DNA of 64,000 nucleotides from a virus: IMG/VR virus record IMGVR_UViG_3300021197_001769. One strand, written 5' to 3'. A model generated the notes under the pieces. It was not told the origin of the DNA. It worked only from the letters and a program-made list of their open reading frames with translations, and did no database searches. The position numbers were made by a program, and so were the translations under genes. This document shows, piece after piece, positions 14,613 to 42,294 of the stretch. The number at the start of each line of letters is the position of its first letter. The stretch's first letter is position 1.

Positions 14613-14616
14613 GTAC

Positions 14617-20538: not shown

Positions 20539-21074
20539 GGACCATCCTCTAACATTTTTTCGCCAGCTTGATTAAAAATTATAACAGGCCACTTTTCATC
20601 AAAACCATGCCAGTTGTAACTTGTACAGACAGGATCATAAGTTTCATACACCATATCTAATTCGTAAATATATTGATCTATGCCTTTATAATTTAACATA
20701 TAATAATCTGAGTTAGCTGCAAATGTGTTATAATAAAAACTATAGTCACCTTTCCAAGACATTATAGATGAATTTAATGGAGTATGATGAGCAGTTCTCC
20801 ACCAAGCATGTAGTAAAGTAAAGTTATCTCTTACCAAGTGTTCGACATTATCTTTTATACAAACATCTAAATCGAAATATAAGTAAGGACCGTTTTTAAA
20901 GTCTCTAAATAATTGAAGTTTATTCCACACGCCATCATATTGCTCATCTCTTATTATGTGTATTTTATCATACCTAGTACCAGTATTAGATAACATATAA
21001 ACTATATTATCAACATATTTTTCTGAATATTTGTTTCCAGTATTAACTAATAATATGTCTAGTAAGGTTCCCAA
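20511..21074 (-). CDS. Glycosyltransferase-like protein (GT-A, DxD)
   Basis: GNKYSEKYV, WNKLQLF, YFDLDV, NSSIMSW, GIDQYI. Confidence 0.75.
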   Translation of the reverse strand: MGTLLDILLVNTGNKYSEKYVDNIVYMLSNTGTRYDKIHIIRDEQYDGVWNKLQLFRDFKNGPYLYFDLDVCIKDNVEHLVRDNFTLLHAWWRTAHHTPLNSSIMSWKGDYSFYYNTFAANSDYYMLNYKGIDQYIYELDMVYETYDPVCTSYNWHGFDEKWPVIIFNQAGEKMLEDGPWSKYMQLG

Positions 21075-21394
21075 TTATCCGTCTCATCATCATGCCACCC
21101 CATTGCTAATTTTACATCATCGCTTACTCTTGACATATCAAATGGAGGATCAAAAGTAGTAATAACTTCACAATCTTTTACACCAGGAGAGTTAATTACT
21201 GCTTTCTTTATTTCTTTTATTATCCAATCGGCTGCAGGACAAAAAGCAGAAGTTAATGTATGTGTTAGAGTCACAAAGGGTAATTTTTCTAAATTGATAT
21301 CGTATATTAAACCTAAGTCATATATGTTAATAGATATTTCAGGGTCGTAAACTTCTTTTAGTCTACTTATTATTTGTTCTTTAATTACTTCCAT
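21059..21394 (-). CDS. Fe-S cluster assembly factor, SufT/DUF59 (MIP18) family
   Basis: LKEVYDPEISINIYDLGLIY...TLTSAFCP...FDPP. Confidence 0.93.
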   Translation of the reverse strand: MEVIKEQIISRLKEVYDPEISINIYDLGLIYDINLEKLPFVTLTHTLTSAFCPAADWIIKEIKKAVINSPGVKDCEVITTFDPPFDMSRVSDDVKLAMGWHDDETDNWEPY

Positions 21395-22011
21395 TTTCCT
21401 ACCACTATAAATCTTCTATAATCTTCGAACCATATTCTATCACCATGTAGCATATGAATATCATTATCTTTAGCTAACTGAACAGCACTCTCTTTACAAT
21501 TAATATGATCTGGTTCATCTACTTTATCATTACTAGTAATCATAAGTAGAGTTCTTTCTGGTGCTATGAATACTTTTTTCATATTACCAAAGTCGTCCAT
21601 ATGCTCACAACTAGTATTAATAATTATATGAGCTCTTCTTTCGTTTGTATCTTCAAACCAATCTTGATTGAATATATTAATTTCAAAAGCTGGTTTAAAT
21701 ATATCTATATACTTTCTTAGTACAGTGCAAGCGAAATCATCTAATTCATAAAAATTAATTTTTCTTATTGGTATATCTAAAAACTTAACTAACATACCTA
21801 TAAGAGGCCAACCAAACCAGCCTCCTACTATCTCTATAGTTACTTCACCATTCTCATCTGTAGGTATAACTATATTTTTATCTTTAAGACCATAAAATAA
21901 TTGTTGTTTAGATTTCTGTTGATTCTCAGATACTGATTGAACGAATCTATCTATCTTATCCGGATGATTATAATAGAACCACTTAAGCATATTAGCGTAT
22001 TCAATTTGCAT
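21385..22011 (-). CDS. Class I SAM-dependent methyltransferase-like protein
   Basis: IVGGWFG (motif I-like), FYELD, IINTSCEHM, SN....DHINC. Confidence 0.65.
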   Translation of the reverse strand: MQIEYANMLKWFYYNHPDKIDRFVQSVSENQQKSKQQLFYGLKDKNIVIPTDENGEVTIEIVGGWFGWPLIGMLVKFLDIPIRKINFYELDDFACTVLRKYIDIFKPAFEINIFNQDWFEDTNERRAHIIINTSCEHMDDFGNMKKVFIAPERTLLMITSNDKVDEPDHINCKESAVQLAKDNDIHMLHGDRIWFEDYRRFIVVGKWK

Positions 22012-22417
22012 TACTACCCTTTACTATGTACCACTTATCTATATTATAGTTAAAATCTACTTTAGTTATTTCGTTATCGAGAATAATTTGATCACAACTA
22101 GTTGTAGGGTTACAATCGCCATTATGCTGATCGTTATCTCCTATAACAATCATATCACCTTTATATACTTTACCTATAGGATAGTGCTTTTCAGTATTAA
22201 AATCAACTACTAATTCGTTAAAGGTTATATTATCGAATATAGCATCTCTTGGATTCTCAAACTTAGGATCATAATCTACAACGTCTAGATCTATTCCTAA
22301 TCCTTTGACTTCTCTTATTAATCGTGGTCTCTCATTACTAGCTATAAAAGTTACTGATTCATAACCTCCATCTATAATAGCATTTAGTAATAACTTTTCC
22401 ACATCTCTTCTGCCCAT
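22001..22417 (-). CDS. Hypothetical protein, possibly a divergent methyltransferase-fold protein
   Basis: 138 aa; VDYDP, NTEKHYP, HNGDCNP loosely parallel the neighbouring protein. Confidence 0.45.
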   Translation of the reverse strand: MGRRDVEKLLLNAIIDGGYESVTFIASNERPRLIREVKGLGIDLDVVDYDPKFENPRDAIFDNITFNELVVDFNTEKHYPIGKVYKGDMIVIGDNDQHNGDCNPTTSCDQIILDNEITKVDFNYNIDKWYIVKGSNAN

Positions 22418-23109
22418 CCTTTTGCCTCATCTAATTCAAATGCTTGCTCTGTTATACCTTTGTTATAAAGTATATGTGAAGTATTGAATATACTCATCCT
22501 ACCTTTTTTCTGAAACCACTCTCTATTGTAGTTACTTACTATACCTTCATCCCAGAAATCCATCAACCCTTTTCTATGAGCTTGATAAAATAAAAACTTA
22601 TCTAAAGACTTATAAGTGAAGAAAGCTTTTTCTTCGTTATCTTTAAGTAAGTTGTATAAGTATCTACCTTTATCACCTTCCCACATAACGAAAGAAGAAT
22701 TGACATGACATGATACACCTTTACCATACCATCTTTCAGATCTCTCTTTATAATTGTTCCAGTAGTTCCATATAAATTTAGGTCTAGGAAAATCTAAATC
22801 TAATAAATCATCTATATTTGAATGTATAAGTATATCTAAATCTAACCAACAATTTTTACCTTCTACGAATTTGTCGAATAAGACGAGTTTTTCTCTTGTA
22901 AAGATTTGATTTTTTGGATGAGGAAAAGGATCGAAGCTGGTATAATCGATACAATTGATACTAGAATCAATCCCGTGAAAATTATCAGAAATAAGATTAA
23001 GTACGAAAGACTTACTACAGTGGTGCCGTAAAGAACCGTAAAGTCTGTTGACGTATTCCGGGCCATATTTTTCTCCCCATTTAAATGTATAGAAGTTTAT
23101 TTCGGCCAT
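22384..23109 (-). CDS. Glycosyltransferase-like protein (GT-A, DxD)
   Basis: KWGEKYGPEYVNRLY, KLVLF, LDLDILI, NSSFVMW. Confidence 0.78.
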   Translation of the reverse strand: MAEINFYTFKWGEKYGPEYVNRLYGSLRHHCSKSFVLNLISDNFHGIDSSINCIDYTSFDPFPHPKNQIFTREKLVLFDKFVEGKNCWLDLDILIHSNIDDLLDLDFPRPKFIWNYWNNYKERSERWYGKGVSCHVNSSFVMWEGDKGRYLYNLLKDNEEKAFFTYKSLDKFLFYQAHRKGLMDFWDEGIVSNYNREWFQKKGRMSIFNTSHILYNKGITEQAFELDEAKGWAEEMWKSYY

Positions 23110-24152
23110 AGTGCATGACCAGTACCTAATTTACGTTTAGGTATTTTACTATCTGCAGATGATACACAAGTATCTGTAGAACATATTTTAGGGCCGTCAA
23201 ACAATTTAAATCCTTTATGAATATAACCTAAAGGTTTATCATTACAACTATAGCTTCTTTTTACGCTACCGTCTGGCTCTCTAATAATTATAGATCTATA
23301 ACCTGATGAACATTCCCAACCTTTAAATCTATTAAAGTTAAAAGCATTAAATCTCTCAGCTTGATCCATCCACCATTCTTTTCCTTTACTGTCTTTCATG
23401 ACAACTTGAAAAATTTGTTTACCGTCTATATTCTGAGGCATACCGTTATGAAGCAACTCTAACATTTCATCAGTGTAACCATCCACAACAAATGAAGCAG
23501 TAGGGTCTGATTGAGGTTTAAGTGTAACGTTAATATCTTTTTCAGCAAAGTATTGAGCATCTTCCCAACATTGCCAGAATGTATCAACTAACATAACTTG
23601 ATTAATAGTTAATTTAACTCCATTGTCTTGTAAATAAACTAACTTGTCTCTAAACTCTTCTAACTTAGCTTCAGTGTTAACATGCTCTCTATGACAAGAA
23701 GCTGTAATAGAAGCTCTTTGAAATTTATTAGCTGATTTAAGATATCTATCCCACCAAGGTCCTTTCCTTGATAAGTTAGTTGTCATATGTATTGAAGTAT
23801 AATTGCAATTATCAGCGTCATCAGCAAGATGCTCGAGTATTTCCAAATACCCTGGATGAAAAGTAGGTTCACCGCCACTAAGTGAAAAATGAAATGAATT
23901 AAACCCATTGTCCCTCGCTTGTCTTTTTATTTCGTCTATAGTCATTAAACATAATTCAGTATCTCTATGATCTTTAGTTCTACTTGAAGCATAAGGCCAG
24001 CAATATGAACATGAATAATTACAAAATCTTCCTAGTAGCCATGATACAGTAAACAGGTCTTTAACTACCATACTATGCTGACCTACCATTTCTATATCTT
24101 CAAATGGTATAGCATTAAAATCATAATCACTGAGAGTTGAAATAGAATTCAT
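23097..24152 (-). CDS. Radical SAM protein with C-terminal Cys-rich (SPASM/twitch-like) domain
   Basis: CNYSCSYC, SGGEPT, TTNLS; C-terminal Cys (ECSSG, YSC, ICSTDTC). Confidence 0.93.
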   Translation of the reverse strand: MNSISTLSDYDFNAIPFEDIEMVGQHSMVVKDLFTVSWLLGRFCNYSCSYCWPYASSRTKDHRDTELCLMTIDEIKRQARDNGFNSFHFSLSGGEPTFHPGYLEILEHLADDADNCNYTSIHMTTNLSRKGPWWDRYLKSANKFQRASITASCHREHVNTEAKLEEFRDKLVYLQDNGVKLTINQVMLVDTFWQCWEDAQYFAEKDINVTLKPQSDPTASFVVDGYTDEMLELLHNGMPQNIDGKQIFQVVMKDSKGKEWWMDQAERFNAFNFNRFKGWECSSGYRSIIIREPDGSVKRSYSCNDKPLGYIHKGFKLFDGPKICSTDTCVSSADSKIPKRKLGTGHALWPK

Positions 24153-24897
24153 ATTGCTGCTCTCCTATTGTATTTTTTATTACATCTTTATTAATAGTAT
24201 TCTTAATTTTGCTTTCAATTATTTTATATTCTTTTTCAGCATTTTCTGCTCTAAATGACATTCTATCTAATTTTTCTTTATAGTCAATATCGTATTCCAT
24301 TTCTTTTAACTTTTGATGTACTCTAGCTAACATTTTAGATACTCTTCCATAAGGAGGGGATTGTAGATAAGCAAAAGGGTCTCTATTAATTCTTAAAGCA
24401 TCAAGACCTACTACCCATAATTTACCTTTTTTATCTATCAAAGCTCTTTCGTCAAAGTAATCATTTAATCCCATATACATCATACCTTGATGAGGATTAG
24501 TCGATCCTTTATCTTTATACATTTCTTTAATATAAGGAGCTCCAACAGTGTAAATCATATAAGGTACAAAATTAAAAGCCCAAAAATAATATTCAACAAC
24601 TTGACTTACTGATGTATTAATAATAGGGTGTTTATATTCTGTACCAAAGTAATGACTAGCTTGCATAGCGTTAGGTATAAATTTATAAGCAACTTGAGCA
24701 GTTGAACCTTGTCTTTCCCATGCAAGTAATTTAGGAAAAAAATCTAACTTATCAATATACTCTTTCATAAATTCTTTTTGCATATCAAATTTACGTATTT
24801 GATTATCGGTATGTAATTGGTATCGTTTAGCACAGTAACCTTTTTTCTCATTTATTTCTAATAAGTTTAATTTAATTTCATTCCATTTGTCTGGCAT
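24127..24897 (-). CDS. Hypothetical protein (possibly degenerate kinase-like fold)
   Basis: 256-aa ORF tightly packed in the operon; FPKLL..AYKFI..LIDKKGKLWVVGLD only weakly kinase-like. Confidence 0.5.
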   Translation of the reverse strand: MPDKWNEIKLNLLEINEKKGYCAKRYQLHTDNQIRKFDMQKEFMKEYIDKLDFFPKLLAWERQGSTAQVAYKFIPNAMQASHYFGTEYKHPIINTSVSQVVEYYFWAFNFVPYMIYTVGAPYIKEMYKDKGSTNPHQGMMYMGLNDYFDERALIDKKGKLWVVGLDALRINRDPFAYLQSPPYGRVSKMLARVHQKLKEMEYDIDYKEKLDRMSFRAENAEKEYKIIESKIKNTINKDVIKNTIGEQQYEFYFNSQ

Positions 24898-24898
24898 A

Positions 24899-25921
24899 TT
24901 AACTCCACTGCGCTGTAAAAGGGTCGAATACCTTATTACATTTTATAGCGCATACTTCTAATTTGTTTTCACCTTGCCAAGCTCTTTCAATAGATTCTAA
25001 AAAACCTGATTCCATAACTTCTTTAGTAGAAGTTTCTAATGCTGATATATTATACTTCTTTATATGGTCCCATATTTGTGTAGACTCTTTAGGTAAATAC
25101 CACTTATACATTTGACCTGCTGTCCAACAACAAGGTAAAATAAAACCTTCAGCACTTATATACAGTTCTTTTTTTTCTACACACTTAGGACAAACTTTTT
25201 CTTCTTTAATTATTTTTTTAATATCAAAATCTTTTTGTAGCTCTTTATTTCTCCACTTAGGATTTGTAGGTTCAGATAATAAAGAACTTAAACCTTTTCT
25301 AAAAACTGCTTGATGTTTAGTTTTTCTTTCTTGATTAGCTGTAATATATCTACCTGACTTCTTAGGTATAAATTTATTAACACCTAATAACTTAGAATAC
25401 TTTTCTGCTTCTTCTACTTGGTGTTCATTGTAATTAAAAACTAAAAAAGTCCAATCAGCTTTGCCTCCTGCAGAAGTAAATGCATCTAAGTTCTCTTCTA
25501 CATGCTGCCATTTTACTCCTTGTCTATAATGATGATTAGTATCTTCTAAACCATCTATAGAAAAATTAACATGTACATCGTATTGAGCTAATTCTTCCCA
25601 CCATTCAACTTTTCTAGCTCCACCGTTAGTAGTCATACCTAGTTTAAGATAAGGATTGCATTCTCTTAGATACTTAAACATTTCTAAACATTCAGGAGCA
25701 AAGATAGGATCACCATGATTACCACACATGTATAATGTATTGAGTTGCTGTACAAATTCTTTAGGTAGTATGTGCTTAACTTGATCTGCTGTAAGAGACT
25801 TATTTTTTAAGAACTGGTTTACATCACCTCCGTTTTTATTTCTATCACACATAGGGCAAGATGCTTGACAGAGTTGAGTAGGCTCTAAGTGTATTTGTCT
25901 TATATCTTCATACTTATACAT
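24899..25921 (-). CDS. Radical SAM/SPASM protein
   Basis: CQASCPMC, CGNHGDP, TTNGG, SIDGLEDTNHHYR, G.ILPCC, CAIKC. Confidence 0.93.
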   Translation of the reverse strand: MYKYEDIRQIHLEPTQLCQASCPMCDRNKNGGDVNQFLKNKSLTADQVKHILPKEFVQQLNTLYMCGNHGDPIFAPECLEMFKYLRECNPYLKLGMTTNGGARKVEWWEELAQYDVHVNFSIDGLEDTNHHYRQGVKWQHVEENLDAFTSAGGKADWTFLVFNYNEHQVEEAEKYSKLLGVNKFIPKKSGRYITANQERKTKHQAVFRKGLSSLLSEPTNPKWRNKELQKDFDIKKIIKEEKVCPKCVEKKELYISAEGFILPCCWTAGQMYKWYLPKESTQIWDHIKKYNISALETSTKEVMESGFLESIERAWQGENKLEVCAIKCNKVFDPFTAQWS

Positions 25922-26456
25922 ACATTAACCTTGTACTAAATCTCATTTGATTCATAATAAAATTATTCAAATCAAGTCTTGCATGCCTAAAAAAGCCATC
26001 TGGTTCAATTAGTCTTAAGTTTAATAATTCTTTTTTAGTTCCTTTTGTTGAAACTGTAGACGGGTAAACATCTCTAGTTTGTAATAGCATATTAGTAGGG
26101 TTCATATCTCCATGAACAAAGTAGTGGCCATATTCATTATAATATGTTAGACTACCTCTCATTAATTCGTAATAGTATAATAGTACTGCATTTAATTCTT
26201 TCTTAGTACAAGTTCTAAAATGAACCGATTCACCTTTTACATACTCCATTACAATTCTATTAGATGTTACTTCATAAACTTCACATATAGAAGGAACTAT
26301 TTCTCTGTATCTTTTATATCTCTCAAACCAAATATCACCTAATTGATTATTGTATAAAGCATGACCATGAATATCTTTTGCACCTTTAAAAGTTTTAATA
26401 ACAATATCGTTATCTAATTCTACTTTCTGTATATCGTTTTCAGATAATAACATCAT
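25914..26456 (-). CDS. Protein-kinase-like/phosphotransferase protein
   Basis: VIKT, IVMEYVKG, catalytic loop HGDMNPTNML, LIEPD. Confidence 0.75.
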   Translation of the reverse strand: MMLLSENDIQKVELDNDIVIKTFKGAKDIHGHALYNNQLGDIWFERYKRYREIVPSICEVYEVTSNRIVMEYVKGESVHFRTCTKKELNAVLLYYYELMRGSLTYYNEYGHYFVHGDMNPTNMLLQTRDVYPSTVSTKGTKKELLNLRLIEPDGFFRHARLDLNNFIMNQMRFSTRLMYV

Positions 26457-27184
26457 TGAGGTTTGCTACATTTCAATTCGGGGTTACCATATTCAAGCAT
26501 TTCAAAGCCCCATTCTCTCTCAAAGCACCAAAAACATTTACCACAATGATGACCAGTAAAGTTATCTGGTTCTTCACAAGACCAAGTTAAAGGATATAGT
26601 TCTTCAAATACACCATAATCTCTATAAGTTTGAGCTACACCTTTCTTATCAGTTTCATGAAACTGATCATTATATGAGAAGTCTTTTTTACCATTATGCC
26701 ATTTAACTAAATCTTTATTGTATCCACTATTGACATCTCTATTAGGATCTCTTCTACATTCTCCTACTTGCTCATCATACCACTTATTAAACTCATCAGG
26801 AGGATTAGTAGTAGTTGCAGATACTAATGATTGAATTTTACTAGCGTCTTTTAACTCTGTTACTATATCTCTTTGTCCTTGAATATAACCTTTGGCTCTA
26901 CTATAACCAGTTTCTGGGTCGTAAGTTAAAGAGCCATCTACATATCTTACAATATGTTCTACTGGCCACACACCTAACTTATTGCCTGTATATTCAATAA
27001 CTTGTTGTGCATAATAATTGTATAGTCTTTTACTAGTAGTAATAACTGTAACAGCATATAAGTCTATGTTCTTATCTTTTATAAAATCACATAAAGCATA
27101 ATACATTATAGATGAGTCTGCGCCTCCTGATATTTTACACGCAACTCCTTTAGTTCCTTCTGGGAAGGTGAAACTAAGAGACAT
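26453..27184 (-). CDS. QueC-like PP-loop ATPase
   Basis: PP-loop SGGADSS; Zn site TWSC...HCGKCFWC.ER. Confidence 0.8.
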   Translation of the reverse strand: MSLSFTFPEGTKGVACKISGGADSSIMYYALCDFIKDKNIDLYAVTVITTSKRLYNYYAQQVIEYTGNKLGVWPVEHIVRYVDGSLTYDPETGYSRAKGYIQGQRDIVTELKDASKIQSLVSATTTNPPDEFNKWYDEQVGECRRDPNRDVNSGYNKDLVKWHNGKKDFSYNDQFHETDKKGVAQTYRDYGVFEELYPLTWSCEEPDNFTGHHCGKCFWCFEREWGFEMLEYGNPELKCSKPQ

Positions 27185-28349
27185 ATTTAAATTCCTCCAC
27201 TAGGTTGTATAATGACTCGTCTCTAGATTTATCTAGAGTGTCGGTATAGTTTTTAAATTTAGGAAGTAGATGAGACCAATCTTCTTTATACATGTAGTCC
27301 GCGATGCTATCTTTCTTTCTAATAACTATATCATAATTTTTTTCTAAGTACAAAGCAGCTCTATCTTTGAGCTCTTCTGGTAATACTCTTATATTTAACT
27401 GTTCGGGATGGTTAAGTATATTCAAGTAAACAGGTATACCTAAAGGATTAAGATAATCAAACAGTTCATGCAATCTAAGAATATTATAAATTTGAACAGT
27501 ACAATGAACTTCTAATCTAACATTTTTCATATTTCTAAAACGTTTTAGATTCTCATCTATCTTCTTCCATGAACTAGGATATCTAATATACCTATCTAAT
27601 TCACCAAACGCATCAACTGAAGCATTAAGTTTTACTTGCTTAAAGTGTTTCCAGTAGTCAACTAACTTATCAGGTATGTTAGTTAAATTAGTATTATACT
27701 TTAATTTTATATTATGTGCAAGTCCTTTTTCAATTAAACTATCATATAGTTGATATTGTTGTTTAATTAATGTAGGCTCACCCCCTGTAAGATATATTTC
27801 TTCTATATCTAATCTATGCTTATCTATTTGGTCCCATAAGAAAGGTTCATCTGGCCAAGTCATATTCTTTAGATACTTAAGTCTATCTTCAGGTAGCTTT
27901 TTATCTTCATCTGCTATTAGATTCCATTCTTTAGTCCACATACTTGACGCGTAAGGGTTACACATTCTACATTTCAGGTTACATAAATTACCTAATCTTA
28001 AATCTAAATATTTTACTTTAATAGGTGGTTTAGTACTCTTTTTAAAGTCAAACATATATCTATTATTAGCAGACTGTCTAGCTGATTCTACACCAGCTTG
28101 TTCTTCTCTGTAACATCTTTTACATATTCTAGATTTTTTCCCTCTTAGCATTTTATCTCTAAGATTAATCATATATTCAGAGTACCACATTTCTTCAATA
28201 GTATCTTCTACTACATTGTAATGTGTACCATCAGGTTTAGTTATAGTAGTACCTTGAGCAATATTACAACAAGGTCTATATTTACCTGTTGAAGTTGTAG
28301 CAATATGCATCCACGGTAATATACAGAACGATTTATTCTTCATAGACAA
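27174..28349 (-). CDS. Radical SAM protein with N-terminal twitch/SPASM-like domain
   Basis: FCILPWMH..RPCC..CKRC; DLRLGNLCNLKCRMC; TGGEPT; YNTN; YIRYP. Confidence 0.94.
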   Translation of the reverse strand: MSMKNKSFCILPWMHIATTSTGKYRPCCNIAQGTTITKPDGTHYNVVEDTIEEMWYSEYMINLRDKMLRGKKSRICKRCYREEQAGVESARQSANNRYMFDFKKSTKPPIKVKYLDLRLGNLCNLKCRMCNPYASSMWTKEWNLIADEDKKLPEDRLKYLKNMTWPDEPFLWDQIDKHRLDIEEIYLTGGEPTLIKQQYQLYDSLIEKGLAHNIKLKYNTNLTNIPDKLVDYWKHFKQVKLNASVDAFGELDRYIRYPSSWKKIDENLKRFRNMKNVRLEVHCTVQIYNILRLHELFDYLNPLGIPVYLNILNHPEQLNIRVLPEELKDRAALYLEKNYDIVIRKKDSIADYMYKEDWSHLLPKFKNYTDTLDKSRDESLYNLVEEFKYVS

Positions 28350-29034
28350 GCCTTTGTTTTCTTAGTTTAAGTGCAGTAGCAATAAAGTTAAACTTTTTAC
28401 CTTTTACAAATTTACCTAGATCTCTTTTTCTATCTAGCTCTTTAAATATATCTTCTGTTAGTTTACATTTAACTAACTTTATGTTATTCTTTAACTCTGA
28501 ATTAGTAAATCTAATATACATTAAAGGATCACCTCTTTCTACTTTAAGTATATCATTAGTTCTATTAAACTGAAAGCCCCAAGATACATTTCTAACCCAA
28601 CTGTGTATATTGAAACTACCTCCTATGATTTGACCGGGGTACGAGTGGTTAAACGGGGGCATTATATCCATTAGAGTAGGTTGATCAGCTATAAACAAAT
28701 ATTTGAAAGCCATTTGAAAGAAAGGTTTGTCTCTATCATGCATATCATTAGATGAATGATAACTAACTATTCTATTCATTTCATGATCATCTACTTGATT
28801 TGATTCTACTTTTACTTCACCTTTACTACTAGTAGCAGTAAATTGTATAGGAGATTTTATTACGTAAGTATTAGAAAAAAAGTTTTGATAAGAAGGACAA
28901 TGCATATAACCTTGCTTATTATAACCTCTCCAAGCATTATAATTATCTACATATCTTTCTGGTGGATAGATAATATAATCATGTAGATTATTATCTGGAT
29001 AACACCAACCTATCTGTTCTTTACTACTTCCCAT
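28333..29034 (-). CDS. Hypothetical protein (phage-conserved beta-rich type)
   Basis: 233 aa; HCPS..NTYVIKSP..IHSWVR..RGDPLMYIRF; function not recognised. Confidence 0.55.
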   Translation of the reverse strand: MGSSKEQIGWCYPDNNLHDYIIYPPERYVDNYNAWRGYNKQGYMHCPSYQNFFSNTYVIKSPIQFTATSSKGEVKVESNQVDDHEMNRIVSYHSSNDMHDRDKPFFQMAFKYLFIADQPTLMDIMPPFNHSYPGQIIGGSFNIHSWVRNVSWGFQFNRTNDILKVERGDPLMYIRFTNSELKNNIKLVKCKLTEDIFKELDRKRDLGKFVKGKKFNFIATALKLRKQRLVYEE

Positions 29035-30080
29035 TGTTCTTCTCCGTTCCTTAATAATGTTATAGCGCTATCTCTATTTCCTGCTCCAGTACATTTTCTT
29101 GCACATATAGGATTAGGTTTATCTGATTCCCAACTTTCCATTAAACCTGTTAAAAAAGGACTAGTATCAAAAAATTCTTCTGCAGAAATATTATGTAAGT
29201 TATCTAAAGGATCTATTGTTCTATGTTGGAAACCAAAATAGCAACACGGTTGTGCAAATCCATCATGGTTAACGAATAACCACCCTTTTCTGCCATCTAG
29301 TCTTTTTAACGCTTTACAATGAATTTTAGGTTTAGATCCATCATTAAGTGTCTTTTTAGGTTGACCCGGAGGTGCTTTAACCGAACCAAATGCTTTAGAG
29401 TTAATAGGCTTCTTGCCTTTTATTAACTTAGGTACAAAGTTCATTCCTAATTTTTCTGTAGATTTTCTAGCTGAAGCTATATAAGTAAATCTATGAAAAC
29501 CCATTTCAACAGCCATCTTATTAGCTTCTTTAACTTGATTATAATTATGGTTAAACATAATAAACTTCCATGAAGCTAATCCTCCAGCTGCTATAAATGC
29601 TTTAGCGTTTCTCATAAGTTTATTCCAATCAGCTCCTACTCTATAGATATGATTAGTATCTTCTAGACCATCAATAGCAAACTCAACATCTAATCTTTTA
29701 TCACCATTAGGTCTTTTATACTTGTTAGATATCTCCCCTATCCTAGTAAAGAACTTCTCATTTCTAGTAGCACCATTAGTACTAATTGAAATTCTTGTAC
29801 TAGGAAATTCTTCTATTAAGTATTCAATAATTTTATCTGCTTCAGGATGTATTAATGGTTCGTCAATCTGACCTGAAAAACTAATTATTGCAAGCTTTGG
29901 TAAAGTTTCAATAGTAAACCATTTCTTAATATCTTCTAAATGCATATAATTAGTATTAAGGAATGGAAGAGCAGCTGGATTAGCTAGTCTTTCGCATCCA
30001 GGGCAAGCTAAATTACAATAAGAAGTTAACTCTAATTGTAGTTTTTCAGTTTCTTTTGCTCCTATTGGCCACTTAAGCAT
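29010..30080 (-). CDS. Radical SAM/SPASM protein
   Basis: CNLACPGC, STNG, AIDGLEDTNHIYR, QPCC, CARKC; paralog of 24899..25921. Confidence 0.93.
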   Translation of the reverse strand: MLKWPIGAKETEKLQLELTSYCNLACPGCERLANPAALPFLNTNYMHLEDIKKWFTIETLPKLAIISFSGQIDEPLIHPEADKIIEYLIEEFPSTRISISTNGATRNEKFFTRIGEISNKYKRPNGDKRLDVEFAIDGLEDTNHIYRVGADWNKLMRNAKAFIAAGGLASWKFIMFNHNYNQVKEANKMAVEMGFHRFTYIASARKSTEKLGMNFVPKLIKGKKPINSKAFGSVKAPPGQPKKTLNDGSKPKIHCKALKRLDGRKGWLFVNHDGFAQPCCYFGFQHRTIDPLDNLHNISAEEFFDTSPFLTGLMESWESDKPNPICARKCTGAGNRDSAITLLRNGEEQWEVVKNR

Positions 30081-31371
30081 TTTTTAAAACCTCATATTCA
30101 TCTTTTAGTTCTTTCCAATACTTTATACAAGAAGGATTCTGTTTTCTAATCTCGCACATAGTTTCAATATATTCAATAAACTTTATAAATTTAGGTATTC
30201 TTTCCTCTTCGTCCCATACAGTTAACATCTTATTAAAATTTTTAACTGCATTATGGTGACTTCTTCTAAATATCTCTCTAGCTTCATCAATATACCATCT
30301 AGGTAAAACTCTATAATCTAGATAAGTAGGATTAACAACTAATGTAGGTATACTTCCTACACCGCCATTTTTATAATTCTTATCTGTCTTTTCTATAAAG
30401 TTAAAAATATTATCAATGTCTAATAAGTTACAAGCCATAGCAGTTACAGACCAATTAATTCTTAACTGAGGTTCAATTATTGTTCTATTATCTTTTAGAG
30501 GTTCTATTTTTTCTTTTAACCAACAATCGTGTTTATTTTTTTTCATTTCATGAAAGGTATCTATATACCAATTTACATTATCACTTATAGTTTTAGTAGT
30601 AGCAGTTTTATGTCCTCTAATAAGATTATACAACTCTCCTGTACCTTCAATACTTATTATAAGTCTTATTCTATGAAAGTTAGACCACATAGTAAGAAGC
30701 TTTTTATCTCTATAAGTCATATTTGTAATATATTTTAACGTTATATTTTTTGATACTCCATGATTAATAAACACATCTAATAGATCATATCTTTCATCTT
30801 GATATAAAGGTTCTCCACCTTTAACTTCTATCATTCTAACGTTTTGTGTAAGACTAGGAAACTCTAATAGATCAGATATAGTGTTATGTTTAACTCTAAT
30901 CATACCTGGTCTAGATTCTCTATTGAACTTATTATTTTCAATCTTGACTAATTTTTCTTCTTCTTTTAACCAACCAGTTGAACTATGAACTCCACAATGT
31001 AAACATTTCAAATTACATTTATTACTTAGATCTAAATCCATCATAAGTATTTTAGGTTTAGTCATTTCATCAGTAATATAAGGTTCTAAGTTTCTTCTAT
31101 AATCATCTGCTCTAGTTTTACCTGCTTGACCTCTTAACTTACATACATTACAATTAGAAGGATACTTACCTTCATTAATATCTTTTCTTAACCAATCCCA
31201 ACTTCTAAATTTATTTCTAATATTATTACCTACATTAGTATCTAAATTTTTATCCCAAGCATCATGATCACCTTTCATATTGTATACACAACAAGGTACC
31301 ACTTGACCCGTAGAGTCAACGTTCACAGAAGTAAAAGGAGCTACGCAAGGTTTATCTAGCAACGAACGCAT
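30073..31371 (-). CDS. Radical SAM protein with N-terminal twitch/SPASM-like domain (start re-called to ATG at 31371)
   Basis: CVAPF..VPCC..CNVC; CNLKCLHC; KGGEP; YITN. Paralogs start a few residues before the first Cys. Confidence 0.9.
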   Translation of the reverse strand: MRSLLDKPCVAPFTSVNVDSTGQVVPCCVYNMKGDHDAWDKNLDTNVGNNIRNKFRSWDWLRKDINEGKYPSNCNVCKLRGQAGKTRADDYRRNLEPYITDEMTKPKILMMDLDLSNKCNLKCLHCGVHSSTGWLKEEEKLVKIENNKFNRESRPGMIRVKHNTISDLLEFPSLTQNVRMIEVKGGEPLYQDERYDLLDVFINHGVSKNITLKYITNMTYRDKKLLTMWSNFHRIRLIISIEGTGELYNLIRGHKTATTKTISDNVNWYIDTFHEMKKNKHDCWLKEKIEPLKDNRTIIEPQLRINWSVTAMACNLLDIDNIFNFIEKTDKNYKNGGVGSIPTLVVNPTYLDYRVLPRWYIDEAREIFRRSHHNAVKNFNKMLTVWDEEERIPKFIKFIEYIETMCEIRKQNPSCIKYWKELKDEYEVLKNA

Positions 31372-32590
31372 CCATTTCTTCTGCCATATCAGGTAACAGA
31401 TCTCTCCAAGATATATCAACTTGTTGTTTAACATCTAAGGTATCTGAAAATTCTATAAACTTAGGAATAAGTTCAGTCATGTCTCCATCTAATGTATTAA
31501 TAGCATCCATAAAATGAGGATTATTTGCAAACTTAGAAGTTCTTAATTTATTTTTTATTTGTTGTTTAAACTTAGGAGGTATAACTCTACAATCTAAGAA
31601 CGTAGGATAATTGACTCTATGAGTGTGTAATTCTATACCCATATCTTCAAAGTCTTTAGCTATCTCTGGCATAAACCATATGTTGTAAACTTGTAAAGTC
31701 AATGCACCAGCTATCTTATAAAGTTTAGGATGATCAATTACCTTTAAAATGTTTTCTTGTACTACTTTATAATCACCTAACTGTCTAATATAATTATAGA
31801 TATCCCCTGTACCGTCAATACTAATATTAATATGAACTCTTTTAAAACTATTCCACATTTCTAAGACATTGTCTTTCTTATAATTTAACTTAGTCATATT
31901 AGTAGCATATCTTAATGATACTTTATCTGCTTCTCCGTACTCCATAATATAATGTAAGACTTTATAATGTAAAGGATCAGTTAGAGGCTCACCTCCTGCA
32001 AAATATATCTCTCTAAAGTATGGACATAATGCTTTAAACTCATCCCAGAACTCTTCAGTGTGCCATTTACTAACATAAGGTTTTCTTTCTATGTTAAACT
32101 GCTCTACTTTTTCATAAGTACTCTTATTATGCTTTTGCATTAATCCTTTTATTGCACCCCAGTCTTGAGCCCAAGAAGTACTATCTACTGGATGACACAT
32201 TCTACACTTTAAGTTACAAAGATTAGATAACTTAGCTTCAAAGGTAGGTATCTTGAAAGGCATAAAACCATCTTCATCCATCTCTTCCCATACAGGTCCG
32301 AAAGTCTTAATATGATTCTTTACTGTCCTTTGTCTCATAGATCTTATACCTTGATCTTCATGCTTCCAACAAGCATTACACTCAGGAGACTTTATACCAG
32401 ATAATAATTCTTTTCTAATAGCTCTCATTCTTGGGTTGTTCCAAGCTTCTTCTAAGCTCTCGTCTTGTATATTACTAGTTGGTCTAGCTCTACAACAAGG
32501 TTTTATTTCACCTGCGGTTTTTGTAGCTATATGTACAAAAGGAAATGTACAAAAAACGTCGTCATTTACTGTTGCTCTTTTAAAGTTCAT
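31352..32590 (-). CDS. Radical SAM protein with N-terminal twitch/SPASM-like domain
   Basis: FCTFPFVH..KPCC..CNAC; CNLKCRMC; AGGEP; YATN. Confidence 0.94.
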   Translation of the reverse strand: MNFKRATVNDDVFCTFPFVHIATKTAGEIKPCCRARPTSNIQDESLEEAWNNPRMRAIRKELLSGIKSPECNACWKHEDQGIRSMRQRTVKNHIKTFGPVWEEMDEDGFMPFKIPTFEAKLSNLCNLKCRMCHPVDSTSWAQDWGAIKGLMQKHNKSTYEKVEQFNIERKPYVSKWHTEEFWDEFKALCPYFREIYFAGGEPLTDPLHYKVLHYIMEYGEADKVSLRYATNMTKLNYKKDNVLEMWNSFKRVHINISIDGTGDIYNYIRQLGDYKVVQENILKVIDHPKLYKIAGALTLQVYNIWFMPEIAKDFEDMGIELHTHRVNYPTFLDCRVIPPKFKQQIKNKLRTSKFANNPHFMDAINTLDGDMTELIPKFIEFSDTLDVKQQVDISWRDLLPDMAEEMDAFVAR

Positions 32591-33653
32591 GTCCTACCCT
32601 TACTAGATCCCCGTATATAAGATCTTTTACTTTTGTTGTATTAAGATCAGCAGCGCATGCGCACCAATTTCTTATACAAGGTTCTGGTTTACTAATCATA
32701 GTAAACTCTTTAAAAATGTTCCCTAGTTTTTTAGTTCTACAAGTAGCATTCCATACATCACCGCTAGGTTCTATTCTTAGACTTTGTATACCAGCCCAAC
32801 AATACCAACCTAGATATTGATTATTTTTAGCTACTGTAAACTCATTTACGTTAGTCTCTCTATTACTTACTTCATAGTTATCGTTTACTTCATGTGCAAT
32901 AACATTTTTAAAATCTGATACTGGAATATTTTTAAGATAGTTTAGTTCTTCATCAGTATAATAGCCTTTATCGCCGCTATAATCTGGTCTACCATCTGAA
33001 CCAGTTAAATTTATTGACGCTATTTGTTTATCATTATCAAAAGGTAATCTCATTTCTTTATTATCTTCTCTATAAGCAGGTCTTATTCTTCTTATTGAAA
33101 CTGCTATACCTTTTTTTCTAAACTCATCTATTTGCTTAGCTGCTTTATCAAATACTGTAGGTAGCATCATCATGTGAACATGTAAGTGTTGAAGGTTACC
33201 TGCTTCATGAACTGCATAGACACTATCAGGTATCTTTTCAACGTCATGATATTCCATATGATAAGAAAATATCATAGAGTTCACATACTGTGATAACTCT
33301 ACATAATACTTTGTAGTTCTAGAACCATTAGTAGTAATACTAAACTGATTAATTCTATCACCGTATTTTTCTTTACCATATTTACAAAAGTCAAATAAGT
33401 GTTTACATATAGTAGGTTCACCACCAGTAAAAGAAAGTCTAATCTTTTTATCAGTAGTATTCATTATCTTATCTAATGTAGCTTTCATTGTATCTAAGTC
33501 AGGGAAACCTGAACTATGATCATGCGTATGCTTATCACAATAAGAACAGTGAAAGTTACATCTCTTAGAAATGAACCATTCTATCTTTACTAAATTATCT
33601 GAATTTTTATTGTTATGCTCTACAGCTACTTTTTTAGATAACATTTTAGCCAA
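32580..33653 (-). CDS. Radical SAM protein with C-terminal SPASM-like domain
   Basis: CNFHCSYC, TGGEPT, TTNGS, CWAG..ATC..C...C.CAAD; paralog of 23097..24152. Confidence 0.93.
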   Translation of the reverse strand: MAKMLSKKVAVEHNNKNSDNLVKIEWFISKRCNFHCSYCDKHTHDHSSGFPDLDTMKATLDKIMNTTDKKIRLSFTGGEPTICKHLFDFCKYGKEKYGDRINQFSITTNGSRTTKYYVELSQYVNSMIFSYHMEYHDVEKIPDSVYAVHEAGNLQHLHVHMMMLPTVFDKAAKQIDEFRKKGIAVSIRRIRPAYREDNKEMRLPFDNDKQIASINLTGSDGRPDYSGDKGYYTDEELNYLKNIPVSDFKNVIAHEVNDNYEVSNRETNVNEFTVAKNNQYLGWYCWAGIQSLRIEPSGDVWNATCRTKKLGNIFKEFTMISKPEPCIRNWCACAADLNTTKVKDLIYGDLVRVGHEL

Positions 33654-35047
33654 TCCATATCTGGGTATATTTTATCAAAATCTTGACCTCTAGTTTCTGC
33701 TACAGTATAACACCACTCAGCAGTCTCAGGTAATCTTTCTGACCAATCTTCAGCATCCATAAAGTTTAAAAGACCTTCTAATCTTTTAATACCATATTCA
33801 CTATTACGCCATTGTTCATAAGATACATTGTGCTCTTTAACACCTGTACATTTTTGCCAATTTTGTTCTAGCCAAGGATACAAATCTTGTTCCCATTTAA
33901 GTCTGACTTCTTCTTTAAAAAAAGTAGGTAAAGCTTTAACGTTCAACTGAGGGGGCCAATAAGCTAAGTGACAACTAAATATACCTGCACCAGAAGGCCA
34001 CTGATTAAGTAGTTTAAACTCACTGTTTATTTTCCACTTAATAAATTCTGGTACGTAAAAATAATTAATTGCCATTCCTGTAAAAGCAGTAGTAAGCATT
34101 AAATTACCATGAGGGTAATTATCTAATACATGCATCTGCTTTTCTAAATGTTTAAACTCTGCAGGGTATCTAACAAAGTTTAATCTGTCTTCAATATCAT
34201 CTATACTAAAATGATATATTACTTTCTTGAAATGTTTCCATAAATCGAATAGATCATCTCTCCATTCTAAACCATTAGAGTTATATCTTACTTCCATTTG
34301 AGAAGCATAACCTTCTCTTATACATTTTTCTAATAGTTCATAATGCTCATCATGTATTAGAGGTTCACCACCTGCCCAATACAATTGTTTAATATGAGGT
34401 ATTTGAGTATATAATTCTGGAAAAAAATCTTTATTCTTTTTATGCCAGTTATATGAACCACCGGACCAAGCTAACTTACCTGACTCTTTTTCCCAAGCCA
34501 TAGTACTTTTAAGTTTTTTGTTTTTTAAATTAGACCATATTTTTTTATGGTCAGGTACCCAGTTAGATGAATCATGCGGTGAGCACATAACACATGCTAA
34601 TTGACATTTAGATCCTAATCTTAAGTCTACGTATCTGACTTGAGCAGGTACTTCACCAGTTTCAGTATCGTAACCTTGTAGTATAGATTCAATACCTTCA
34701 TCTCTAATCCACTTATCAGTTTCCCATTGTCTTTTAGATCTATGTCCAGCTTCTTCTTCCTTATAACATTTAAGACATGATGCTGGTTTTTCACCTCTCA
34801 TCATAGTCTTTCTAGTTTCTTTCATATAGGTATTATTCCAAGCTTCAAGTAAACCAGTAGTTGCTAGGTTAGCAGGTTTACCGTCTTCTCTTCTTAATAC
34901 ACCTACTTCTGAAGCTGTTTTATTTGTACTATCTGCATTCTGTACTCCAGATGCATTAGCAGTACAACAGACACGCATATGTCCATTAGGTCTAGTACTT
35001 ACATGCATCCATGGAAGTGCACAAAACGTTTCTGAAGGATAAGCCAT
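33626..35047 (-). CDS. Radical SAM protein with N-terminal twitch/SPASM-like domain
   Basis: FCALPWMH..RVCC..CLKC; CQLACVMC; AGGEP; YNSNG; VRYP. Confidence 0.94.
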   Translation of the reverse strand: MAYPSETFCALPWMHVSTRPNGHMRVCCTANASGVQNADSTNKTASEVGVLRREDGKPANLATTGLLEAWNNTYMKETRKTMMRGEKPASCLKCYKEEEAGHRSKRQWETDKWIRDEGIESILQGYDTETGEVPAQVRYVDLRLGSKCQLACVMCSPHDSSNWVPDHKKIWSNLKNKKLKSTMAWEKESGKLAWSGGSYNWHKKNKDFFPELYTQIPHIKQLYWAGGEPLIHDEHYELLEKCIREGYASQMEVRYNSNGLEWRDDLFDLWKHFKKVIYHFSIDDIEDRLNFVRYPAEFKHLEKQMHVLDNYPHGNLMLTTAFTGMAINYFYVPEFIKWKINSEFKLLNQWPSGAGIFSCHLAYWPPQLNVKALPTFFKEEVRLKWEQDLYPWLEQNWQKCTGVKEHNVSYEQWRNSEYGIKRLEGLLNFMDAEDWSERLPETAEWCYTVAETRGQDFDKIYPDMDWLKCYLKK

Positions 35048-35610
35048 TAGGCTGTTTCCGGAGGCGTCTCTTCAGTTTGTTTAGCAGGATTGTCTAAAAT
35101 AGTTGCTGCGGTCATAGCTACTATTTCCATAAGGTTACCAGCTTTTCTAATCTTAGCTTTAAGTTCTCTATTCTTAGAACTCTTTACTTCATCGATTTCG
35201 AAAGCTTGTAATTTTAATTTAAAAAGATCATCTTGAGTCAACTCTGTAAGGTTAGTAGCTGCAGGGGCTGCAGTTTCACCTTGCTTAGACAACTGTTTTC
35301 CGATATCACTCATTACCTCTGCGGTAATTTCGTTACGTAACTCGTTGTGCTCGCTGATTAATCTTTCGTGGAACTTGGTAGTATTTTCTTCAACAACTGT
35401 TAAAGGAACTTGCTTAACAAACTCTTCGAAGATTGGATTGGGTCCAACTGACACCGTCCTCAAAAATTTGCTAACTCTTTCAGGCGCTTGCCCGTCATAG
35501 CCTTCTACGTGAAAGTGCTCTTCAACGTTGACGTTGATAGTAGTTTTATCATCGTCAACGAAGTAAGCAGTTTCCGGCGTATAGACTGTATTCATAATTT
35601 CCGTTTTCAT
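35047..35610 (-). CDS. Hypothetical protein
   Basis: 187 aa, GGAG RBS, stop overlaps the start of the first radical SAM gene. Confidence 0.6.
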   Translation of the reverse strand: MKTEIMNTVYTPETAYFVDDDKTTINVNVEEHFHVEGYDGQAPERVSKFLRTVSVGPNPIFEEFVKQVPLTVVEENTTKFHERLISEHNELRNEITAEVMSDIGKQLSKQGETAAPAATNLTELTQDDLFKLKLQAFEIDEVKSSKNRELKAKIRKAGNLMEIVAMTAATILDNPAKQTEETPPETA

Positions 35611-35634
35611 AATATATTTTTCTCCGCTTTGCTA

Positions 35635-36567
35635 TTATGTATTAGCTAGTCTTAGATAATGGTTAGTAGTACTTAAACTATTAACATCTCTATAGTATGT
35701 ATGGCCTGATATTACCTGGCCAGATGATGCATTTGTAGAGCCATCATAATGTGTTTCTACAAAACCACCTGCATCAATACCTGATGTAGATGTACTGAAA
35801 GTATAGACTAATTTACTACTTTCATTTATTCTGTTATACAAGAAAGGAGTAAAAAAGCTCTGAATTTCTGCATCTGACATTTCAATAAATCCTGCATTAG
35901 TAGAATTATATCTTACAGGTCTTGAAGTAGTCGGGGCTGACTCTGAAGTCTTCTTGTATAGTGTATAAGTTGTTGTACTTGGTCCACCTGTATTACCAGC
36001 TGTAACTTGTCTATTAGCCATTGTCATACCTGTAGAAGCATATGTACCGTCAGGTGCAGAAGTTGCTAAATGAAACTTACCAACGCCTCCTCCTTCAACA
36101 TCTTGAATGATAGGATCAATAACTGTATCATACATATCAGCTAATGTCTTAGTAGCACCTACATAACCTAATGGTTGTAGGTTATCATAGTCAGCATCTA
36201 CAGCAACTAATGCTCCAGCATTCCAAGTTGTACTATTAGGTTCGTCAGTACTGTTATTATAATTTTGATACATTGTATAGGTAGTTGCTCCTGATGAACC
36301 AGGGGCATTAACGTTTGAGTTGGAAGGTCCTACTCCCCATACGTTACCAATATCAGTAGTTCTTCTACCTTGTGATCTTGATTCATCTGTTACTGCTCCG
36401 ATAGAACTATAACCGGATGGATTTGAATTAATTGTTAAGTGCCCTGGATCATTAGTTCTACCAGCCCAGTATACTCTTACTACGTATGATACGTAATCTA
36501 AATCTGCATCTGACATTTCAATAAGGCCAGATGTTCCGTTAATTTTTAGGGGTCTTCTTACAGTCAT
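35635..36567 (-). CDS. Putative virion structural protein
   Basis: 310 aa, S/T/G-rich; internal duplication RPLKING..IEMSDADL / RPVRYNS..IEMSDAEI. Confidence 0.6.
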   Translation of the reverse strand: MTVRRPLKINGTSGLIEMSDADLDYVSYVVRVYWAGRTNDPGHLTINSNPSGYSSIGAVTDESRSQGRRTTDIGNVWGVGPSNSNVNAPGSSGATTYTMYQNYNNSTDEPNSTTWNAGALVAVDADYDNLQPLGYVGATKTLADMYDTVIDPIIQDVEGGGVGKFHLATSAPDGTYASTGMTMANRQVTAGNTGGPSTTTYTLYKKTSESAPTTSRPVRYNSTNAGFIEMSDAEIQSFFTPFLYNRINESSKLVYTFSTSTSGIDAGGFVETHYDGSTNASSGQVISGHTYYRDVNSLSTTNHYLRLANT

Positions 36568-36601: not shown

Positions 36602-36609
36602 TATTTATT
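36602..36609 (-). promoter_or_regulatory. Late-promoter variant AATAAATA upstream of the 310-aa gene and radical SAM operon
   Basis: 7/8 match in the intergenic gap. Confidence 0.55.
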
Positions 36610-39346: not shown

Positions 39347-39350
39347 ATCT

Positions 39351-39358
39351 TATTTATT
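39351..39358 (-). promoter_or_regulatory. Late-promoter variant AATAAATA, 4 nt before ATG
   Basis: AATAAATA-AGAT-ATG. Confidence 0.7.
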
Positions 39359-42116: not shown

Positions 42117-42294
42117 TTTTCTCTAGTATCCTTTCTAACAAGTTTTCTATTCTATTTAATCTATATTCTAAATCGTTCAATCTTTTTTGTTCTTTACGTC
42201 TTTTATTAATAGTTGCTTTAAGAGACGGATCAGTATTAATAATAGCACCGCCTCTCTTTTCAAGATACGGATGACCTTGTATATTTTTATGCAA
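42109..42294 (-). CDS. Small coiled-coil protein of the type that follows VrlC-like genes
   Basis: 61 aa; IQGHPYL...GAIINTD then a coiled coil; overlaps both neighbours. Confidence 0.7.
   Translation of the reverse strand: MHKNIQGHPYLEKRGGAIINTDPSLKATINKRRKEQKRLNDLEYRLNRIENLLERILEKNG

Follow-up and report, generated by a model that had tools for sequence, protein, structure and literature searches.

An array of eight radical SAM genes in the host-recognition island of a marine T4-like phage as a possible glycan-tailoring cassette

The 64,000 nucleotides of the IMG/VR virus record IMGVR_UViG_3300021197_001769 analysed here (the window) are part of the genome of an uncultured marine T4-like myophage, and they contain a cluster of eight genes encoding radical S-adenosylmethionine (SAM) enzymes within 12 kb (23097-35047). 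All eight are located on the minus strand and match the Pfam family PF04055 with 30.4-51.3 bits, the gathering threshold being 29.5. The original prediction, made by a model from the letters of the sequence, had described these enzymes as eight proteins of three subtypes, and the description is confirmed. The CxxxCxxC motif is intact in all of them and occurs exactly once per protein, whereas the division into two type A, two type B and four type C enzymes is reflected in the identities, which are 24% for A1/A2, 28% for B1/B2 and 25-29% among C1-C4, and much weaker between types. The motifs quoted for type A, CN(Y/F)xCSYC, and for type B, DGLEDTNHxYR and PCC, are also present.

Read from the head of the operon, the first radical SAM gene is C4 (33626-35047, 473 aa), followed by A2 (32580-33653, 357 aa), C3 (31352-32590, 412 aa), C2 (30073-31434, 453 aa from the first ATG), B2 (29010-30080, 356 aa), C1 (27174-28349, 391 aa), B1 (24899-25921, 340 aa) and A1 (23097-24152, 351 aa). 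The type C proteins are N-terminal-twitch enzymes, C1 being the most canonical member; B1 and B2 carry a C-terminal CC/CxxxC domain (PF04055 49.9 and 30.4 bits), and A1 and A2 a C-terminal Cys domain (50.6 and 43 bits, with a Fer4_12 match in A2). The CxxxCxxC motif starts at residues 123, 140, 125 and 148 of C1 to C4, respectively, and it reads CQLACVMC in C4, CNLKCRMC in C3, CNFHCSYC in A2 (residue 32), CNLACPGC in B2 (residue 22) and CNYSCSYC in A1 (residue 44); a GGEP-type motif, or its DP/EP variant, is visible in the sequences as well. C2 probably starts at an internal Met, at about 31371: with 453 aa it would overlap its upstream neighbour C3 by 83 nt, and the orthologue on the syntenic Tara contig L001 is shorter (423-424 aa), so that the estimate of about 432 aa in the original prediction appears reasonable. 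Comparison with the orthologues from a Tara Oceans contig (55-89% protein identity) gives ratios of nonsynonymous to synonymous substitution rates (dN/dS) of 0.07-0.34 at dS 0.7-1.2, values that indicate purifying selection and working genes.

The four type C proteins belong to the NCBIfam family NF033640 (N_Twi_rSAM, "twitch domain-containing radical SAM protein"), which they match over the full length of the model with 399, 193, 347 and 359 bits (C1 to C4) against a cut-off of 170. On the other hand A1, A2, B1 and B2 score 33-60 bits in the core region only and are not members. It had been proposed that the auxiliary Cys domain of type C precedes the radical SAM core, reversing the usual order; the Pfam matches bear this out (SPASM at 9-95, before PF04055 at about 119-292; in C4, SPASM 9-95 and core 145-291; in C3, SPASM 14-75), but the arrangement is not new, as it is the one that defines NF033640. 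In an alignment of 56 sequences C9, C76, C79, C123, C127 and C130 (C1 numbering) are invariant, and G22, C27 and C28 are kept in at least 90%, which gives the front motif Cx12Gx4C(C)...CxxC. A profile alignment over 61 columns links the C-terminal domain of B1 to the N-terminal one of type C (hhalign E 2e-4), so type B looks like a conventional-order relative of type C. The C-terminal Cys domains of types A and B can be read as the same kind of module as the type C SPASM domain. Nevertheless, the type A domain has no profile similarity to the auxiliary domains of types B and C (hhalign E 0.19 and 0.29), and its twitch-like nature is suggested only by Cys spacing and a weak STM4011 C-terminal match.

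Membership of NrdG, QueE or MoaA, families into which the original prediction had considered that the proteins might fall, was checked, and none of the eight reaches a curated cut-off: the best scores are at most 47 bits against 284 for MoaA, 33 against 206-260 for QueE, 28 against 131 for NrdG and 57 against 180 for viperin. The best match among the models of maturases of ribosomally synthesised and post-translationally modified peptides (RiPPs) is PapB (49.8 against 340 bits), the rest giving at most 41 bits against 265-850, and the anSME model TIGR03942 gives at most 19 bits against 349. For A2 the best NCBIfam matches are the cores of viperin, PapB and MoaA, far under the cut-offs. Sequence matches in the PDB are confined to the core, with E values of 8e-5 or weaker. 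Searches with the AlphaFold2 (AF2) model of C1 (pLDDT 95) likewise recovered a generic radical SAM core, with Foldseek TM values of 0.33-0.40 and VIA Z scores of 12.6-14.3 and no characterised enzyme ahead, since anSME (14.3), BlsE (14.1), SkfB (13.9), PFL-AE and viperin are tied. A literature search found neither a published activity nor a tested member of NF033640, and nothing on N-terminal twitch or SPASM domains or on SPASM proteins of Bdellovibrio.

Relatives of these enzymes are abundant. More than 2,660 homologues of C1 were found in metagenomic protein sets at E<=1e-10, and at least 568 viral stretches of IMG/VR encode one. Among species-representative genomes, the best 80 loci are mostly from predatory bacteria of the Bdellovibrionota, including complete chromosomes, and several genomes have more than one locus. 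These 80 cellular loci and 85 viral loci of up to 21 kb make up the set of 165 on which the following comparisons are based. Arrays of 3-13 radical SAM genes per locus are usual in both phages and Bdellovibrionota, so the presence of eight genes in 12 kb, noted in the original prediction, is real but typical of the class (the viral median is about five per 21-kb locus, and 31 of the 85 viral loci have seven or more). The highest count, 13, occurs in contigs binned with marine metagenome-assembled genomes (MAGs). Packed single-strand arrays of 9-13 genes were seen in contigs of Acidimicrobiaceae, Rickettsiales, Verrucomicrobiales, Chloroflexota, Crocinitomicaceae and Gammaproteobacteria MAGs (loci L086, L093, L109, L110, L036 and L037 are examples); they have a phage-like look and may be mis-binned viral contigs.

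The Tara contigs syntenic with the window contain the same eight radical SAM genes and two more, one of them of the B12 type. Orthogroups of C4, C1, B1 and A1, at 40% identity or more, are each found in 35-49 loci (range 40-65%); orthologues with at least 50% identity occur in 37 loci for C4 and also in 37 for A1, those of B1 with at least 40% in 38, and B1 and C4 orthologues are often found side by side. The orthogroups of A2, B2, C2 and C3, by comparison, are rare. Since orthologues are 40-65% identical across dozens of loci and the paralogues of one genome only 24-29%, the paralogues appear to be old and individually conserved, which points to distinct fixed roles and not to redundancy. At the nucleotide level, no match to the 12-kb cluster was found by megablast against 50,697 phage records. 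Tblastn against isolated phages detected relatives with 19-30% identity in KVP40-like vibriophages, in Ralstonia phage RsoM2USA and in a marine single-cell viral fragment. The N-twitch relatives of KVP40 (at about 135 kb), Vibrio phage K566 and RsoM2USA are 19-24% identical, and in K566 (L116, 161.5-166 kb) three consecutive genes are annotated as radical SAM, within a region of nearly all hypothetical proteins. KVP40-type vibriophages and RsoM2USA are cultured and could be used as tractable models.

The commonest partner of the arrays that is not a radical SAM gene is a family of methyltransferase fold, represented in the window by the 208-aa protein at 21385-22011 and present in 56 of the 165 loci. 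It is followed by the PP-loop ATPase family of 26453-27184 (20 array loci), B12-type radical SAM enzymes (16), an amidinotransferase-like family recognised by its C-terminal FWDGGxHCxT motif (15), a NodU/TobZ-type carbamoyltransferase (15), a DUF59 family (10), desaturases (7) and TauD (6), and by a family read as a pyridoxal phosphate (PLP) enzyme in 13 of the first 85 loci. Besides, family 2 glycosyltransferases (GT2) amount to 25 copies across 13 cellular loci of Bdellovibrionota. Few of the 85 representative partner families have a Pfam match; these matches include UDP-glucose dehydrogenase, cytidylyltransferase, PfkB kinase, APS kinase, class V aminotransferase and GT2. A conserved protein of about 74 aa adjoins the methyltransferase-fold gene in many array loci and was found in 21 loci, L036, L037, L069, L093, L118, L121 and L123 among them. 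It has the motifs ATNNN, FNKxAHHNSQ and YGDLPSKxGPGK, matches no Pfam family and is without a homologue in the window; a function as carrier, scaffold or small subunit is conceivable.

The cluster is part of a 21-kb enzyme island situated between the tail genes and the terminase. The large terminase, 51-55% identical to those of isolated cyanomyophages, is encoded at 12375-14210, and on the other side of the island there are a gp9/10-like baseplate protein (37922-39346), a gp15-like sheath stabiliser (39359-40351) and a neck protein (40348-41385). From 35610 down to 19969 the minus strand has no intergenic space, its genes abutting or overlapping. The transcription unit is headed by two conserved genes of 310 and 187 aa (35047-36567, minus strand), which have orthologues in all the relatives, with or without the cassette, and abut C4 by an ATGA overlap. 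The motif ATAAATA, which forms the core of T4 late promoters, occurs at 36602-36608 on the minus strand, about 35 nt upstream of the 310-aa gene, and thus precedes the two leader genes and the gapless operon; the next copy on this strand is only at 20222. This heptamer is three-fold depleted in the window (17 copies observed, for example at 2299, 8376, 10273, 12356, 14606, 36602, 39351, 49555, 56534 and 57090, and 51 expected), and 11 of the 17 lie in short gaps directly upstream of genes, a pattern consistent with T4-type late promoters selected against elsewhere. Between 18.5 and 37.5 kb, sigma-70-like promoters and terminators were counted at or within chance (9 terminator-like sites against 5.8 +/- 2.5 expected), so they give no sign of internal punctuation. 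It is therefore likely, judging from one motif and the gene layout, that the operon is expressed late together with the structural genes.

The remaining genes of the operon, all on the minus strand, are interspersed with or follow the radical SAM genes. Between B2 and C1 there is a 233-aa protein (28333-29034) that matches phrog_17480, of unknown function (E 1e-16), has no Pfam or NCBIfam match and is missing from the syntenic cluster of L001. Between C1 and B1 are encoded a 243-aa PP-loop ATP pyrophosphatase (26453-27184), with a visible SGGxDS motif, which resembles QueC only in its C-terminal Zn motif (PF06508 25.8 bits, residues 167-229 only), and a small RIO/Bud32-like kinase-fold protein of 180 aa (25914-26456; PF01163 RIO1 26 against 22 bits, Bud32 E 0.003) that is kept in L001. 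The 256-aa protein at 24127-24897 has no Pfam, PHROG or NCBIfam match and is possibly of kinase fold; its closest named atlas clusters, APH/RIO1/YrbL with a score of 0.92, are a lead only. Adjoining A1, a 241-aa protein (22384-23109) is a candidate glycosyltransferase of the GT8-like (GT-A fold) kind, with a DLD motif and similarity to atlas clusters named "Glycosyltransferase", PF01501 Glyco_transf_8 and Nucleotid_trans / nucleotide-diphospho-sugar transferases (0.94-0.96). It is followed by a 138-aa protein (22001-22417) of unassigned family, without Pfam, PHROG or NCBIfam matches and kept in L001.

The 208-aa protein of 21385-22011 has the fold of class I SAM-dependent methyltransferases: its AF2 model (pLDDT 90) gave MtmC, BioC, KijD1, TcaB9 and other methyltransferases as top Foldseek matches, all at about 1e-8, and the NDP-sugar C-methyltransferases (MtmC, KijD1, TcaB9) are among many equally scored ones. 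Next to it, a 111-aa DUF59/SufT-like Fe-S assembly protein (21059-21394) was recognised by PF01883 (56.6 bits), its TIGR02945 score (102 bits) being under the cut-off of 143; an assembly factor encoded by the phage itself within the operon suggests that the cost of the radical SAM enzymes is real. The operon ends with two small GT-A-like candidates of 187 and 189 aa (19969-21074), with DLD and DVD motifs. The 187-aa protein matches a glycosyltransferase, phrog_1962 (E 0.0012), and the 189-aa protein shares 46-55% identity with a gene of cassette-free relatives; neither these two nor the 241-aa candidate has a Pfam or NCBIfam match. Divergent from the operon, on the plus strand, there is an oxygenase block (14605-19993) with an exact TATAAATA in front at 14605-14612, whose genes (14617-19993), assigned by Pfam, encode a fatty-acid desaturase-like protein, two AspH-like (Asp/Arg-hydroxylase-like) cupins, a TauD dioxygenase and four proteins of unknown function.

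The structural proteins of this phage carry a tag of their own. The tripeptide Asp-Ser-Asp (DSD) occurs 120 times in 17 virion-type proteins, in each of which none of 300 shuffles reached the observed count (enrichment of about 14- to 37-fold over shuffles), and it is absent from 26 island and enzyme open reading frames (ORFs). The tagged proteins are encoded at 68-12326, 36612-44140, 49564-54311 and 57101-57988. Because DSD is written with 16 different codon triplets using both serine families (TCN and AGY), selection acts at the protein level. Many copies belong to the fibre repeat "RLDSDs..iQal" and many others are in unrelated contexts. All the relatives with a gp15 identity of at least 54% show DSD at about 5-23 times expectation, the lowest values being found where radical SAM genes fill most of the locus. 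Tagged relatives include loci with the full 10-kb downstream flank and no radical SAM gene, and in one locus the island is absent and the tail genes are joined straight to the terminase. An 85%-complete relative has only two Radical_SAM hits, both distant from the island. Cassette-bearing relatives show a DSD enrichment of 17.9-fold and cassette-free ones of 17.2-fold, and the other array loci (81 viral and 80 cellular) show none, with ratios of 0.66 and 0.88.

The idea that the cassette writes the DSD tag was consequently rejected. A second tripeptide enriched only in the virion proteins of cassette-bearing phages was also looked for, and none was found. Virion proteins, one half of the substrate guess in the original prediction and an appealing one in view of the tag, receive no support from co-occurrence. 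The cassette-free relatives keep homologues of the three GT-like genes and of the methyltransferase-fold gene. In L016, L017, L019, L025, L030 and L031 (at about 15-19 kb of each locus) they form a four-gene module, with one homologue of the 189-aa GT-like protein, two of the 241-aa GT8-like protein and one of the 208-aa methyltransferase-fold protein, in the orientation opposite to that of 19969-23109 in the window. Within the island it is this module that is conserved. Should anything encoded there read DSD, the GT-like and methyltransferase-fold genes are better candidates, as they are kept in tagged relatives that lack the cassette, and the radical SAM enzymes would at most tailor what those proteins attach.

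The reading that we favour, tentatively and at slightly less than even odds, is that the eight genes form a variable, probably late-expressed cassette for tailoring a glycan or sugar, placed inside the host-recognition island of the phage. The 5'-deoxyadenosyl radical that each enzyme would generate by cleaving SAM would abstract a hydrogen atom from a substrate of non-ribosomal origin, most probably a sugar or glycan. The paralogues may act at different positions or steps, for example in oxidation to a keto sugar, epimerisation, dehydration, or C-C and C-methyl chemistry. The GT8-like transferases of the operon would assemble or attach the glycan, which the methyltransferase-fold protein, the PP-loop ATPase, the kinase-like proteins and the neighbouring oxygenases could decorate further, the product being presumably destined for the virion surface or the host envelope. 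This interpretation is based on the NF033640 membership, the gapless operon, the habit of forming arrays, the sugar-handling partners, the GT8-like neighbours and the lack of RiPP hallmarks, together with the methyltransferase fold of the commonest partner, which has NDP-sugar C-methyltransferases among its top matches, the radical SAM, PLP and amidinotransferase genes of an isolated cyanophage, and the individual conservation of C4, C1, B1 and A1. Most of the annotatable partners handle sugars or are tailoring enzymes, and the GT2, carbamoyltransferase, UDP-sugar dehydrogenase, cytidylyltransferase and GT8-like neighbours fit the other half of the original substrate guess, a glycan on the virion proteins.

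Several points weigh against this interpretation. Most partner families have no Pfam match, and because few of the 85 do, the sugar signal comes from a minority of them; the window itself has no amidinotransferase, PLP enzyme, GT2 or carbamoyltransferase partner. The fold search ties sugar-acting with protein-acting enzymes (BlsE 14.1, anSME 14.3 and SkfB 13.9), the late timing is deduced from one motif and the layout, and no NF033640 activity was found in the literature, so that the substrate and product proposed here are predictions from the genes. A bolder version, in which the N-twitch arrays are a widespread and undescribed machinery for radical glycan editing and, in this phage lineage, diversify a GT8-hung glycan on the DSD serines of tail, neck and fibre proteins, is rather unlikely.

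Direct editing of the phage's own virion proteins by the radical SAM enzymes, through epimerisation, the oxidative formation of formylglycine from Ser, or cross-linking in the vicinity of DSD or within it, with no glycan intermediate, is unlikely. It would agree with the position of the operon in the structural module behind a late-type motif, with the 120 DSD copies in 17 virion-type proteins, none in the island enzymes, written in 16 codon triplets, and with the top structural match, anSME (Z 14.3), which oxidises Ser or Cys in proteins, though its score is tied with others. However, the cassette-free relatives are as enriched in DSD as the cassette-bearing ones (17.2- against 17.9-fold), the two hits of the 85%-complete relative are far from the island, 161 other array loci lack the enrichment (0.66 and 0.88), no motif is specific to the virion proteins of cassette-bearing phages, and the family is also found among GT2 and carbamoyltransferase genes in Bdellovibrionota chromosomes. 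Quite unlikely, too, is that the cassette makes a diffusible small molecule (aminocyclitol- or aminoglycoside-like, a nucleoside or a cofactor) that acts on the host or on competitors and is not attached to a surface. The amidinotransferase-like and PLP-enzyme-like families, carbamoyltransferase, B12-type radical SAM enzymes, methyltransferase and kinase recall aminoglycoside pathways, and a similar trio of genes has been called "antibiotic synthesis genes" (PMC12801897); nevertheless, no scaffold-forming enzyme (cyclitol synthase, nonribosomal peptide synthetase or polyketide synthase) was recognised in the scans of island and partners, in which the sole exporter-type match was to the major facilitator superfamily. 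A late burst of secondary metabolite would bring no obvious benefit to a lytic phage, and three GT-A-like transferases together with a position between tail-fibre genes fit an attached glycan better.

The maturation of a ribosomal peptide encoded elsewhere in the genome has a very low probability. SPASM/twitch radical SAM enzymes are typical RiPP maturases, SkfB, SuiB and CteB are among the structural matches, and a conserved 74-aa protein lies beside the arrays of 21 other loci, but that family has no homologue in the window and all the maturase models stay at or below 50 bits against cut-offs of 265-850. In accordance with the original prediction, the operon has no precursor-peptide gene and no free small ORF, given that no gaps separate the genes and every ORF of at least 20 aa in 19969-35610 is nested in a larger one. 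Regarding the other hallmarks, the RiPP recognition element (RRE) or PqqD domain, the leader peptidase and the ABC exporter are missing from the Pfam scans of island and partners, the 85 representative partner families included; the eight proteins match only Radical_SAM, SPASM and Fer4_12, and no RRE was seen on the neighbours, although a divergent one could escape. Equally improbable is a role in the hypermodification of nucleic acids (phage DNA or tRNA). Radical SAM, kinase and PLP enzymes can take part in pathways of phage DNA hypermodification, and the radical SAM genes of the window are interspersed with genes for kinase-like proteins and for a PP-loop ATPase that has a QueC-type Zn motif. 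However, the operon belongs to the late structural module and not to the replication module, QueE and QueC models match weakly or partially, and neither a DNA transglycosylase nor a base-modifying transferase was recognised among the island genes.

Returning to glycan tailoring, its interest is mainly functional. The architecture and the family are already catalogued and phage cassettes have been mentioned in print, so the novelty lies in the reaction: in the literature found, no reaction is known for NF033640, whose environmental members number in the thousands, occur on at least 568 viral contigs and form arrays of as many as 13 genes. Radical SAM enzymes with auxiliary clusters carry out some of the hardest C-H chemistry known. 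If the bolder glycan-editing reading is true, the chemistry would be new to the superfamily and would operate in aerobic hosts of the surface ocean, and close relatives would come to differ in the chemistry of their virion surfaces as the cassette is gained or lost. Should the product be a surface glycan, it would have implications for the ways in which abundant marine phages change host recognition or shield their particles. The relatives constitute a natural experiment, as they share the tail genes, the DSD tag and the GT8-like module while having 8, 10, at least 5, 2 or 0 radical SAM genes, and the comparison of virions or expressed operons across them could reveal the product.

Among known systems, NF033640 is the closest for type C, since C1-C4 share with it the N-terminal Cx12Gx4C(C)...CxxC domain ahead of the CxxxCxxC core; types A and B fall outside the model, which is itself of "subfamily" level and has no assigned function. 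anSME, SkfB, SuiB and CteB are the best structural matches of the core (Z 12.8-14.3 over about 205-215 residues) and have auxiliary clusters too, but they differ from the window in the reversed domain order of type C and in that no RRE, precursor or sulfatase gene was found among the island proteins scanned. BtrN, DesII, AprD4 and BlsE, which act on sugars, aminocyclitols and sugar nucleosides, also have an auxiliary Fe-S domain or extension in addition to the radical SAM core. BlsE (Z 14.1), DesII (Z 11.1) and AprD4 (Z 8.3) are among the structural matches, BtrN being absent from the match lists; unlike them, the window proteins have no membership at sequence level, and the auxiliary domain of type C is at the opposite end. 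In the C1 model the resemblance thus appears to be one of superfamily level, with Z scores tied with those of protein-acting enzymes. Aminotransferase, amidinotransferase and carbamoyltransferase partners are typical of the sugar and aminocyclitol radical SAM pathways.

The arrays have counterparts in other marine T4-like phages. In the isolated cyanophage S-SCSM2R a radical SAM "maturase" gene adjoins an AHBA_syn-type PLP enzyme (of the sugar-aminotransferase type), near an inosamine amidinotransferase, and its authors read the trio, without tests, as antibiotic synthesis (PMC12801897). A radical SAM gene beside PLP and amidinotransferase types of enzymes is a trait shared with the array loci, whereas the window has eight radical SAM genes instead of one and lacks those two partners. 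For the host-recognition cluster of pelagimyophages, radical SAM cassettes are mentioned in a single sentence that assigns them neither to a family nor to a function (Zaragoza-Solas et al. 2020, PMC7029224). The phage of the window differs in that its terminase is just 51-55% identical to those of isolated cyanomyophages. Nevertheless, in both cases the phages are marine and T4-like, the island that holds the cassettes is variable and set among structural and tail-fibre genes, on the side of the neck (gp13/14) and the sheath stabiliser (gp15), and the cassettes are present or absent between close relatives, alongside glycosyltransferases of the GT8 type.

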